Source: Alteraurantiacibacter sp. (GTDB lineage Bacteria; Pseudomonadota; Alphaproteobacteria; Sphingomonadales; Sphingomonadaceae). Taken from it: a stretch of 26,426 nucleotides of DNA. The DNA lies in assembly GCA_036397575.1 (NCBI GenBank), contig DASWIR010000113.1, positions 1 to 26,426 of the forward strand, in the 5' to 3' direction. The notes under the pieces were generated by a model. The model saw only the letters and a list, made by a program, of their open reading frames with translations. It did no database searches and was not told where the DNA came from. Of this stretch, positions 19,716 through 26,426 are shown piece after piece; within the stretch, counting starts at the first letter, position 1; each line of letters starts with the position of its first letter. A program made the translations under genes and the position numbers.

Positions 19716-20579
19716 ATGTCGGGCAGCGTTCTGCGTCTGGGTAACATTCAGTTCGACGAGGCGGCCGGAACGGTCACGGTCGAGGGCGAAGAAGCGATCG
19801 AACTCGATCGCAGCTGCCGCGCCATCCTGTCGTTGCTGCTCAGCCAGATCGACGAGCCTATAAGCAAGGACCGGCTTCTCGAGGCGGGCTGGCCTGGCCG
19901 CGTGGTCCATGAAAATTCGCTCGCCAAGGCCATTGCGCGCTTGCGTCACGCGCTGGGCAATGAAGGCAAGCGGATCGAAATGGTCTACGGGCAGGGCTAT
20001 CGACTGACGGGCGACGCTGATCCGCCAGGACCGCCTGTTTATCCGCCTATGCGTCGACGTCCGACCCGCTATCTCGTCATATCCGTCGCAGCCGGCTTTG
20101 CCCTGGTCGCGTCTATCGTCCTTGCGACGATTTTCTGGGCCGGCAATAGCTCAGCTGACGGCCAAAGCGCGTTGAAAATAGGCGAGGCGCCCGACGTGAT
20201 CGGCCGCGTCCTGTGGGTCGACGATCACCCCGGGAACAATGCAGAGGAAAGGCGTTTCCTCGAAGGGCGGCAGATCGCCGTCTACGAAGTTACGTCGAGC
20301 GACGATGCGATGAAGTTGCTCTCGATGTACAAATATGACGCCGTGATTTCCGACATGGGGCGGAACGGGAACCCGCTGGCCGGTCTCGAACTGATCAGGG
20401 AAATGCGCGCGCGGAAAAATTATACGCCGTTCGTCCTCTATACCATCCTGCCGTCCAAGGCTCAGCGCGATCTTCTCGCCGAATATGGTGGCCAGGGTGT
20501 CGCGGTAACCCCGGAAGGGCTGTATAGTTTCCTCCTTCCCGGGCTCGATCGGCGATCCGCCCAGCGCGCGGCCGATTGA
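19716..20579 (+). CDS. ToxR/CadC-like winged-helix protein with a TM segment and a C-terminal receiver domain
   Basis: wHTH (SKDRLLEAGWPG..V.ENSL...I.RLR.AL...I..VYG.GYRL), hydrophobic LVISVAAGFALVASIVLATIFW, receiver motifs LWVDD.P.NN and YDAVISDMGR. Confidence 0.8.
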   Translation: MSGSVLRLGNIQFDEAAGTVTVEGEEAIELDRSCRAILSLLLSQIDEPISKDRLLEAGWPGRVVHENSLAKAIARLRHALGNEGKRIEMVYGQGYRLTGDADPPGPPVYPPMRRRPTRYLVISVAAGFALVASIVLATIFWAGNSSADGQSALKIGEAPDVIGRVLWVDDHPGNNAEERRFLEGRQIAVYEVTSSDDAMKLLSMYKYDAVISDMGRNGNPLAGLELIREMRARKNYTPFVLYTILPSKAQRDLLAEYGGQGVAVTPEGLYSFLLPGLDRRSAQRAAD

Positions 20580-20628
20580 ATCGGGCAACTTCGATTGTGC
20601 ACGACGGATTCGCGCCTATGATCGATCC

Positions 20629-24659: not shown

Positions 24660-24698
24660 GGCTGTGACCCGGCGTTTGAACAGAAAAGGAATATTCCC

Positions 24699-26426
24699 AT
24701 GTGGCTGAATAGGGTTCTTCGACTTGCCGCGGTGGCCGTGTTCGGAATCGGATTCGGACAGGTCCTCAGTAGCCATGCTCAGGCGCAAGATCTGTACAGG
24801 CTCCCCTCACCCTATGGCGGCAGCCTGACGGTGGACGAGCAGAAGGCATCCGCCGCGGTGCGTCCGGCGCTGGCCGATGCCAACTGGAACCATGAAGTCT
24901 GCGCGATCTCCTACAATTACGAAAACACCCCGAGAGACATAGCAAAGGCGCGGGTGGATGTTGAAAAGAAGCTGGAAGCATTTTTCCAACAAGCGCTCAT
25001 CAATGATATGCCAAAAGCGCAAATTGAAGAAAAGGTTAAAGAAGCAACACGGGTGTTTGAAGCCCAGATTAAGGCAGCAGAAAAGGCCGCCGCGCCGCAT
25101 CTTGCCAATATCCCCAAATGCAAGGGCCAGTTTTTCCGCCCGGCGCTGGAAAGCGTCTGCGGAAAAGACTACGGCGGCAATCGCTTCTGCGCCCAGTTGG
25201 ACGGCTCCCTGCTGCCCGGCGTGGAATTGCTCGAAGACAAGCTGGAATTTGCTCACGGCCTGTCGTGGAACAAGGTCGGTGAGTTGTTCACGCGCGGCGC
25301 GAGTTTTGCCCCGGCACCTTGGGGCGCCGCGCCCGCTCGTGCTCTGGAGCCTTCAGCATATCCCATGACCATGAGCGCGGACGGCGCATATATTTTCAAG
25401 CCCGCAGACGGCCCCGGACTCCGGTTCCACCCGCAAATGTTCAGCGATGACTCCGATCTCACACTTTTCGATCAGATGGCCAAGGCGAGGGAAGCCGATC
25501 TCGAAGCCGCGTCAAAAGCTGGCATTGCATATATTGCAACGGTCAATAACGCCATGATCGGCGATAGCGGAGAGGAAATGCCCTTTGGCACCGGCCAATG
25601 GGCCTTCAGCATCGGGGTCGATCGCTTCGCCAAATATGAGGTCGGGCATGAGGTTTCGGTGCTCGCCGGCAATATCGAGCGTGAGATAGGAATGGTGACC
25701 GACCTCGGCGAATATTATCAATTGCCCAGCCTCCATTTCCAGGCCCTGATATACGACGTCTTGGTGCAATCCGACTTTGCGCGGTTCGCGGTGGAAAAGG
25801 CCGGCGGCGAAACCGTGGCGTTGAAAGGTTACGGGGATGGCAGCGGAGACAATGATGGCATCGCCTGGTTCCAGTCGGCACCCGACGATGGCCCATTCTT
25901 CGGCAGCAGCTATGCCAGCTACCGCGTTCACGCTCTGATGACGCCATCGCCGGACGATTTGAAGGCGATCCTCGATCCGCAAGCCGCATTCCTGGTCGCC
26001 AGCTTTGAAATGCTGCTGGAAGACGGCTCGATCGATGTGGTTACTTTGCGCACGCCGCTGACCGGCATTTCTGCGGCCTGGACGCGGATGAACCGCGATC
26101 ATCTCGAAACGCGAAACCTGATCCGGCAGAAGGTGAGGGAATGGGATGGACGCACCGCAGAGGCGAAGGCCGAAAGGGCGGCGCTGGTGCAGGATCGCGT
26201 GATGGCCTGGCAGGCAATGGCGGTCGCGGCCGAAAAGGAGGCGCGCGCCTATATCGCCGCCAACCCGTTCGCGCGCGGCTGCGAACGCCTGCCTATCGGC
26301 AGTGTCGGCGGCGACGCCGATAGCGTGAATCGGCGGGCCGGCCGCATAATGGAATGCGACAAGCGCTGGGTGGCACGCATGCGGGTGGTGAAGGACAAGC
26401 TTGGATCGCTCAGGTCGCGCTATTCC
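24699..26426 (+). CDS. Large secreted hypothetical protein (at least 576 aa, runs off window; absent from ORF track)
   Basis: Manual translation from the ATG at 24699 (RBS AAGGA) gives MWLNRVLRLAAVAVFGIGFGQVLSSHAQAQ... with no stop codon to the window end. Confidence 0.85.
   Translation, partial: MWLNRVLRLAAVAVFGIGFGQVLSSHAQAQDLYRLPSPYGGSLTVDEQKASAAVRPALADANWNHEVCAISYNYENTPRDIAKARVDVEKKLEAFFQQALINDMPKAQIEEKVKEATRVFEAQIKAAEKAAAPHLANIPKCKGQFFRPALESVCGKDYGGNRFCAQLDGSLLPGVELLEDKLEFAHGLSWNKVGELFTRGASFAPAPWGAAPARALEPSAYPMTMSADGAYIFKPADGPGLRFHPQMFSDDSDLTLFDQMAKAREADLEAASKAGIAYIATVNNAMIGDSGEEMPFGTGQWAFSIGVDRFAKYEVGHEVSVLAGNIEREIGMVTDLGEYYQLPSLHFQALIYDVLVQSDFARFAVEKAGGETVALKGYGDGSGDNDGIAWFQSAPDDGPFFGSSYASYRVHALMTPSPDDLKAILDPQAAFLVASFEMLLEDGSIDVVTLRTPLTGISAAWTRMNRDHLETRNLIRQKVREWDGRTAEAKAERAALVQDRVMAWQAMAVAAEKEARAYIAANPFARGCERLPIGSVGGDADSVNRRAGRIMECDKRWVARMRVVKDKLGSLRSRYS

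Follow-up and report, generated by a model that had tools for sequence, protein, structure and literature searches.

We predict that a 26,426-nucleotide stretch of DNA from Alteraurantiacibacter sp. (Sphingomonadaceae), hereafter the window, ends in the first part of a self-regulated, horizontally mobile alphaproteobacterial operon that encodes envelope-located exported proteins together with their own membrane-bound regulator. We give this interpretation a probability of roughly 0.6. The genes in question are two regulator genes, R1 and R2, followed by a short spacer and six genes for exported proteins, G1 to G6 (Table 1). We infer from sequence comparison that R2 is a one-component regulator of the ToxR/CadC type, with a cytoplasmic winged helix-turn-helix (wHTH) domain, one membrane span and a periplasmic tetratricopeptide repeat (TPR) domain, and that it binds a phased array of TTCA direct repeats starting 27 bp after its own stop codon. 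It would drive a single transcript through G1, G2, G3, (G4), G5 and G6 and on into four genes, H, I, J and K, that lie on a second contig of the same assembly. R1, which has the same wHTH recognition segment and a receiver-like domain past the span, could provide an accessory second input on the same operator. The products are all predicted to be exported via Sec, and their conserved even cysteine counts suggest disulfide bonds. With one member anchored in the membrane (H, which has a weak SH3-like match), one lipoprotein (K) and otherwise soluble proteins, the exported set most likely builds or remodels a protein assembly in the envelope in response to a cue from the periplasm.

The regulators, the element and the exported proteins

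The strongest evidence that regulator and array form one unit is a conserved non-coding element between R2 and G1, to which binding by R2 is predicted. From R2 to the first exported gene, the sequence has diverged between genera except for this block of about 72 bp. It contains TTCA cores at offsets 5, 14, 37, 47 and 68 (spacings of 9, 23, 10 and 21 bp), which form direct repeats roughly in helical phase. Helically phased direct repeats are the DNA-site pattern of OmpR/PhoB-family proteins. With an nhmmer profile the element is detected exactly once in each locus, in every case immediately 3' of R2, and the 2.55-Mb assembly from which the window comes has no second copy. The profile matches directly after R2 homologues in Sphingopyxis sp. 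113P3 (E = 7.5e-21), Brevundimonas basaltis (E = 9e-17) and Hyphococcus luteus (E = 2.6e-6), and genome G522 has two copies of the element, each in front of one of two divergent arrays. A 17-mer of the element, TTCANNNTTTTCAGAAT, occurs a single time in the genome of the window and was not found in genomes that have R1, or R1 and R2, without the array.

The initial annotation of this DNA, made from the sequence alone, described two paralogous ToxR/CadC-like genes, and both are present. The OmpR/PhoB-type winged helix (Trans_reg_C, PF00486) is matched at 46.5 bits by R1 (E = 4e-12) and at 46.2 bits by R2 (E = 5e-12), above a cut-off of 26.2 bits; R1 additionally matches the receiver-like family PF00072 (E = 9e-10), and R2 matches TPR_12 (E = 2e-18) and TPR_10. 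Inspection of the sequences reveals in each protein one uncharged hydrophobic stretch of about 23 residues with Arg-rich residues before it, and the predicted topology is a single span with the sensor domain outside the cytoplasm. The paralogy is limited to the wHTH, where R1 and R2 are about 58 to 60% identical over about 100 residues. A nearly identical stretch shared by the two genes (Table 1) lies in a 213-nucleotide repeat of 73% identity, and the R1 wHTH of Sphingopyxis sp. H115 is closer to that of its own R2 (81% identity) than to those of other R1s (56 to 66%). Together, the near identity and the H115 comparison suggest repeated gene conversion between R1 and R2.

The two regulators differ in how regularly they occur. 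Full-length R2 homologues of 40 to 76% identity stand at the head of every related locus, and R2 is by this comparison the conserved regulator of the cluster. The requirement for a regulator pair, assumed at the outset, is not supported. R1 accompanies R2 in five loci (the window and those of genome G001, Sphingopyxis sp. H115, Sphingopyxis sp. 113P3 and genome G554), is missing from most others, and occurs alone, without an array, in genomes G202, G229, G256 and G269; in G229 the R1-type homologue lies directly upstream of a gene for a 1,682-residue secreted protein. R1 is best described as a putative accessory, optional regulator. We considered and rejected the possibility that R1 is an OmpR-family two-component response regulator: the domain order is reversed, a hydrophobic span separates the domains, and the receiver match, which covers only profile positions 1 to 84 of 111, has Thr-Pro by inspection at the position of the conserved Lys. 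Assignment of R2 or R1 to CadC proper was rejected because of an NCBIfam CadC equivalog score of 11.7 bits against a cut-off of 400 bits, the TPR sensor and the lack of cadBA genes.

The exported genes themselves, as well as the spacer before them, were described accurately from the outset. Six co-oriented genes follow the spacer, with gaps of 42, -26, 9, 82 and 39 bp, and each encodes a hydrophobic leader ending in AxA or AQA. Their GC content is uneven (0.49 to 0.67 per gene and 0.33 to 0.79 per 100-nucleotide window). G1 to G5 have exactly four cysteines apiece in mature regions of 61 to 145 residues, and G6 has four in its N-terminal part plus Cys528 and Cys553 near the end of the window. 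These counts are kept in orthologues of every family and are therefore not a matter of chance. G1, whose orthologues (50 to 56% identity) occupy the same position in eight loci with the four cysteines invariant, and G2, which is present in zero to two copies per locus, are distant paralogues (hhalign of family against family, probability 95%, E = 1.7e-8); the remaining mature proteins of G1 to G6 have no pairwise BLASTP similarity. Given the short gaps and overlaps, and the finding of no terminator-like site on the + strand, the genes probably form one operon.

This operon would extend beyond the window. Contig C430 of the same assembly (4.2 kb, positions 1-4197) continues the cluster: its first 327 nucleotides encode the last ~108 residues of G6, ending in GYLGTGYW, with about five codons lost between the two contigs, and H, I, J and K follow. 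The window contains, by this comparison, only the 5' half of the operon. A search with the G6 alignment, using one genome per species, gave seven loci, in Tsuneonella flava, Sphingopyxis sp. H115, S. flava, two Sphingopyxis metagenome-assembled genomes (MAGs), a Citromicrobium MAG and the sister MAG of the window's own. In all seven, tblastn of every window protein recovered the order R2, G1, (G2), G3, (G5), G6, after which come H, I, J and K, four further conserved exported proteins. With C430 included, the order in the clade reads R2, G1, G2, G3, G5, G6, H, I, J, K. Sphingopyxis sp. 113P3, whose genome is complete (CP009452.1), has the entire arrangement, a copy of R1 included. The conserved core, as judged from these loci, is a G1/G2-type domain, G3, G6, H, I, J and K. 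Accessory small proteins (extra copies of G2, G4, G5 and three designated X, Y and Z) appear to be gained and lost.

Table 1. Positions and properties of the cluster's features, in the window unless another sequence is named; the last column gives identity to the window protein in the seven loci found with G6
Feature	Position	Strand	Description	Identity
R1	19716-20579	+	287 aa; wHTH residues ~26-97, hydrophobic segment ~120-142, receiver-like domain 165-250	
R1 wHTH stretch encoding GWPGRVVHENSLAKAI	19878-19933	+	55/56 nt identical to 20803-20858 in R2	
R2	20629-22467	+	612 aa; wHTH, hydrophobic segment residues ~136-160, ~450-residue TPR domain	54-67%
Spacer R2-G1	22468-22590		123 bp, 49-54% GC	
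Conserved non-coding element	22494-22567	+	~72 bp; alignments A7 and A13; putative R2/R1 operator and promoter region	
G1	22591-22932	+	73 aa mature, 4 Cys (C..CxC..C)	42-56%
G2	22975-23226	+	61 aa mature, 4 Cys, net charge +5	29-39%
G3	23201-23632	+	112 aa mature, 4 invariant Cys, C-terminus ...CIPHPAYYGSGYP; alternative start GTG 23219	58-71%
Direct repeat, copy 1	23598-23644	+	47 nt: G3 3' end, ribosome-binding site, ATG of G4	
G4	23642-24175	+	145 aa mature, 4 Cys	
Direct repeat, copy 2	24214-24260	+	Decayed relic of G3 3' end, ribosome-binding site, ATG of G5	
G5	24258-24659	+	112 aa mature, 4 Cys, acidic	27-41%
G6	24699-26426	+	576 aa here, cut by contig end; long form ~680 aa	38-46%
G6 C-terminus	C430 1-327			
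H	C430 350-904		~250 aa, anchored in the membrane at its N-terminus, weakly matching SH3_3	
I	C430 916-2628		~570-630 aa with eight invariant Cys; genera share 55-82% identity	
J	C430 2613-3329		~240 aa, exported	
K	C430 3292-4164		~280 aa lipoprotein; paralogue of C-terminal part of I	
R1 and R2 of Sphingopyxis sp. H115	4515-5360 and 5412-7250 of fetched stretch		Basis of wHTH comparison	

Distribution, gain and loss of the cluster

That regulator and secreted-protein genes belong to one unit, as initially proposed, agrees with their distribution: in three alphaproteobacterial groups, R2 homologues, the element and small exported four-cysteine proteins are found as a set. Of the 15 R2 loci with readable downstream sequence, 14 have G3 next to R2, and R2, the element and G3 co-occur in Sphingomonadaceae, Kordiimonas, Brevundimonas and Hyphococcus (14 of 15 loci). 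G3 is also the best-conserved small protein of the cluster, with 39 to 70% identity across Sphingomonadaceae and Kordiimonas (alignment A12) and 93 clusters in a large protein database. Within the order of the window, carriage is sparse. Five of 400 other sampled genomes have a full-length R2 homologue. Protein I, which forms only 21 clusters among 5.8 billion entries, was found in none of 400 other sampled genomes of the order and has no match in the plasmid collection.

Different sets of genes follow R2 in more distant carriers. In Kordiimonas aestuarii these are G3, a 144-residue protein like the N-terminal domain of I and three G4-like genes, and in K. gwangyangensis they are G3, a G4-like gene, a gene like the N-terminal part of I and a further G4-like gene. 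A G2-like gene and two other secreted proteins follow R2 in genome G522, where G3 and another cluster protein are divergent. Genome G217 has two copies of G2, then G3, a long G6 and more, with a large serine recombinase alongside. The order in Brevundimonas basaltis is R2, G2-like, G3, a 131-residue protein, G2-like, a 150-residue protein and a G4 homologue, and in Hyphococcus luteus ArdA and ParB_N are followed by R2, G1, G3 and then a long series of genes that have no annotation. The R2 of B. basaltis is 76% identical to that of the window, which is above any Sphingomonadaceae copy (60 to 67%), and this closeness points to transfer of the cluster between orders. Genes of mobile type lie beside the cluster in Sphingopyxis sp. 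113P3, genome G217, S. flava and Hyphococcus; they encode serine recombinases, PIN/YhaV, ArdA or ParB. The cluster is evidently both patchily distributed and mobile. The genome comparison proposed in the initial annotation, which anticipated conserved regulators and variable content, gave that result at the scale of orders, but within the clade of the window the content is largely fixed.

One change in content can be followed in the window itself, where G4 is, by comparison of loci, a lineage-specific insertion that duplicated the G3-G5 junction. In other genomes G5 begins within about 11 bp of G3, and G4 is missing from this place in Tsuneonella, Sphingopyxis and Citromicrobium. In the window a direct repeat brackets G4; its two copies are 79% identical, and the first aligns to the single G3-G5 junction of the other genomes. 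The GC content of G4 is low (0.51, locally 0.33). Homologues of G4 occur in other R2 arrays, namely those of Brevundimonas (38% identity over residues 7-177), Kordiimonas (two to three copies) and Hyphococcus. In addition, H of Sphingopyxis sp. 113P3 (positions 8950-10020 of the fetched stretch) is a 356-residue protein whose G4-like C-terminal domain is 26% identical to G4 of the window, a fusion that links H and G4. Taken together, these homologues and the fusion suggest that G4 was shuffled inside the system and not brought from outside. We do not favour a host signal peptide joined to a foreign mature domain, as the Brevundimonas homologue aligns with its leader included. Integron-type cassettes were likewise rejected, because apart from the duplicated junction no gene is bordered by a repeat and there is no attC-type site; the window has no integron integrase.

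Modularity may extend to the large proteins. Kordiimonas has stand-alone proteins of 139 to 144 residues that resemble the N-terminal domain of I (13355-13789 and 12454-12873 of the fetched stretches), and on this ground the large cluster proteins appear to be assembled from the same small exported modules. Pro-rich, Gly/Tyr-rich tails of similar, conserved sequence are found at the C-termini of G3 (...CIPHPAYYGSGYP, window positions 23590-23632) and of the long form of G6 (...IPPKPNGYLGTGYW, C430 positions 280-327), with the consensus ...IPHPxYYGSGYP in G3 and ...IPPxPxGYxGTGYW in long G6. This common tail may be a recognition or sorting motif.

Relation to known systems and competing explanations

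To our knowledge, nearly all membrane-bound wHTH regulators described so far come from enteric pathogens and control virulence genes there, and our literature search found no account of such a regulator in Alphaproteobacteria. R2 and R1 resemble CadC, ToxR, TcpP, PsaE and VtrA in having an N-terminal OmpR-type wHTH, a predicted single span and a predicted C-terminal extracytoplasmic sensor, in lacking a histidine kinase partner, and in being encoded beside the presumed target operon; the direct repeats of the element fit the sites of the OmpR/PhoB family. The sensors differ. In place of the periplasmic domain of CadC or the small alpha-beta domain of ToxR and VtrA, R2 has a TPR domain of about 450 residues and R1 a receiver-like domain. 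The hosts are environmental Alphaproteobacteria and the cargo consists of exported proteins without a known family. A wHTH followed by TPR is also the design of HilA, EilA and YgeH, which give the best NCBIfam wHTH matches (E = 2e-9, far below cut-off), but HilA is cytoplasmic, has no span and controls type III secretion genes, whereas R2 has a hydrophobic span between wHTH and TPR. The co-component systems VtrA/VtrC, ToxR/ToxS, TcpP/TcpH and PsaE/PsaF (Kinch et al. 2022, PMC9214523) offer a further parallel: a membrane-bound wHTH regulator is co-inherited with adjacent, fast-evolving periplasmic proteins that lack a family assignment, and the systems spread in a cassette-like manner. In those systems, however, the partner is one membrane-tethered lipocalin-like protein, often from an overlapping gene, while here several soluble, Sec-cleaved four-cysteine proteins and large proteins are encoded behind an operator-like element. 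No partner gene of the VtrC kind was accepted, given that the gene next to R2 lies 123 bp away, behind the element, and encodes a 73-residue four-cysteine protein with a cleaved signal.

If our interpretation is correct, the same regulator design is combined here with a TPR sensor and stands at the head of a transferable operon of environmental Alphaproteobacteria. At least ten exported proteins of this operon fall outside any described family, and both of those that were modelled lack fold relatives. The 72-bp element and R2 constitute a directly testable candidate regulator-operator pair, and since cultured carriers exist, this set of envelope proteins is accessible to ordinary genetics. We speculate further, with low confidence, that the cluster is an undescribed mobile envelope module in which the TPR sensor, possibly receiving its cue via G3 or the tails, switches on a disulfide-stabilised apparatus of several proteins whose families and folds have no known relatives, with exchangeable four-cysteine domains (G1/G2-type and G4) as determinants of specificity or conflict.

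Several observations weigh against the operon interpretation. No recognisable -35/-10 promoter lies beside the element. Genome G554 has R1 and R2 only, with no array and no operator half-site, and G3 was not found anywhere in this 99%-complete genome; the regulators can thus occur where this cargo is absent. Pseudokordiimonas and Altererythrobacter xiamenensis each have a divergent G3 homologue that lacks an R2 within 7 kb. The position predicted for the receiver-like domain of R1, outside the cytoplasm, is unusual, and the structure model of protein I is of moderate confidence (pLDDT, predicted local distance difference test, 71). Lastly, the case for an assembly in the envelope consists of shared export and co-inheritance.

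These observations, and others, are open to different explanations. The cluster could be an inducible arsenal of swapped conflict proteins, such as orphan immunity proteins, secreted antimicrobials or decoys, behind conserved regulators, which we consider unlikely. It shares with polymorphic toxin and orphan immunity arrays the runs of small, unrelated, co-oriented genes, the variable content, the mobile and patchy island and, in several loci, tandem cytoplasmic paralogues with DUF5984 and a HEAT-like protein after the cluster. The insertion of G4 with its duplicated junction fits this idea, as do the varying complement of small proteins (zero to two copies of G2, accessory X, Y and Z, and two to three G4 copies in Kordiimonas) and the faster divergence of G2, G5 and G6 (27 to 46% identity) than of R2, G3 and I (55 to 76%). 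The cassette-like character claimed for the array in the initial annotation is thus borne out by G4 and by small-protein sets that differ between lineages, but not by the core, whose content and order are fixed across genera and in which G3 is nearly obligatory. G3 and I are strongly conserved, which is not typical of immunity or effector genes, the small gene products are exported, and no toxin, immunity or defence family was matched. No type VI secretion system, contact-dependent inhibition or other delivery genes were present in the loci examined, nor was there an integrase or attC-type site, the sole repeat being the duplicated gene junction. It is also doubtful, to a similar degree, that G3 and perhaps G1/G2 belong to the sensor and not to the cargo, acting in the periplasm as co-sensors of R2 or as ligands for its TPR domain and so giving feedback, as ToxS, TcpH, VtrC and PsaF might be compared with their membrane regulators. 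TPR domains often bind C-terminal peptides, and the tail common to G3 and long G6 could be such a ligand; the regular pairing of G3 with R2, directly after it in Kordiimonas, the conservation of G3 among the small proteins and the precedent of co-component systems (PMC9214523) all agree with a sensory role. However, G3 lies downstream of the element like a target gene, G1/G2 usually stand between it and R2, it is predicted to be soluble without a membrane tether, and the two genomes named above carry it with no R2 nearby.

Two further explanations have less to recommend them. It is highly unlikely that the cysteines are metal or redox ligands and that the operon answers metal or redox stress in the periplasm through a membrane sensor. 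The CxC invariant in G1/G2 and the even cysteine counts in all members would fit such a response, as would the glutathione S-transferase and rhodanese genes directly upstream in the window, but the upstream neighbours are different in every other locus, and no His/Met-rich or known metal-binding motif or family was detected. Moreover, cysteines of exported proteins in the oxidising periplasm are usually disulfide bonded. Still less probable, and barely plausible to us, is the absence of any functional link, with regulators and secreted-protein genes hitch-hiking on one mobile island. The regulator pair alone in G554 and the occurrence of R1 among unrelated neighbours in other genomes could be read in this way, but in three orders R2, the element and G3 remain side by side amid entirely different surrounding genes, and in G522 the element is duplicated with each divergent array.

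Protein families, structure models and surroundings of the cluster

The exported proteins have few recognisable relatives. Neither G1 to G6 nor H to K match Pfam, NCBIfam, PADLOC or PHROGs, except for the weak SH3_3 match in H, and PADLOC defence models have no match for R1, R2, G1 to G6, I or J. A sequence search of the PDB found no relative for profiles of G1/G2, G3, G6 and I or for the single sequence of G4. Fold searches had been suggested for each protein; those made, with AlphaFold2 and Foldseek for G6 and I, gave no fold relatives. The G6 model, from a 25-sequence alignment (pLDDT 85.5; pTM, predicted template modelling score, 0.73), combines helical hairpins with an alpha/beta part, a beta-sandwich and, at the C-terminus, long helices, and has nothing at E <= 0.001 in the PDB or BFVD, with immunoglobulin-like or propeller noise in the PDB. 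The model of I, beta-rich in its N-terminal two-thirds with a helical bundle at the C-terminus, likewise has no Foldseek match at this threshold. A UniRef "YARHG domain" label on two G3 homologues was not adopted, as no Pfam match is recorded for any member of the G3 family.

The G1/G2 domain defines a wider, unannotated family of small secreted four-cysteine proteins. In a search of 1.84 billion proteins, a profile of the mature domain matches 183 representatives, and Pfam has none of them; most consist of a signal peptide and a single domain, and some are tandem. In a Nitrospira MAG (3820-6531 of the fetched stretch), a tandem G1/G2 protein follows a 140-residue secreted protein, divergent from a 415-residue LuxR/GerE regulator, and a second remote copy is likewise beside a small unannotated protein and a LuxR-type regulator. 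In Tsuneonella, three Sphingopyxis and Citromicrobium, the gene that immediately follows G3 is a G5 orthologue (27 to 42% identity) in which the four cysteines are kept. G6 has only 18 clusters among 5.8 billion entries and exists in a short form of about 405 residues and a long form of about 660 to 690. Contig C200 of genome G001, the sister species (109-3245, minus strand), encodes two G6 paralogues in tandem, of which one runs into the contig end and the other is of the long form (678 residues), plus a 58-residue fragment of a third.

The window is the entire contig C113 of a 75%-complete MAG (486 contigs, 2.55 Mb), whose sister genome record is labelled uncultured Sphingomonadaceae bacterium. 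On the minus strand at 15008-17601, in a group that lies 2.6 kb upstream, are genes for a DUF5681 protein, an N6/N4 DNA methylase, a ParB_N protein and a MazE/HTH-like protein, a stretch that looks like the remnant of a mobile element; the rhodanese (UPF0176) and glutathione S-transferase genes lie between the ParB_N group and R1. Downstream of the cluster, Pfam and NCBIfam scans of the encoded proteins in related loci matched only DUF5984 and, weakly, HEAT. In Sphingopyxis sp. 113P3, K is followed (13296 to 21773 of the fetched stretch) by three cytoplasmic paralogues of 224, 239 and 123 residues, DUF5984, PIN and YhaV toxin genes and serine recombinases. This arrangement looks like the end of an island, in which the run of paralogues resembles an immunity-type array. 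On the other side of the same locus, about 1.8 kb upstream of R1 and R2 and on the opposite strand, is a gene for a 908-residue protein with wHTH, Ser/Thr kinase and TPR domains (1-1114 of the fetched stretch).

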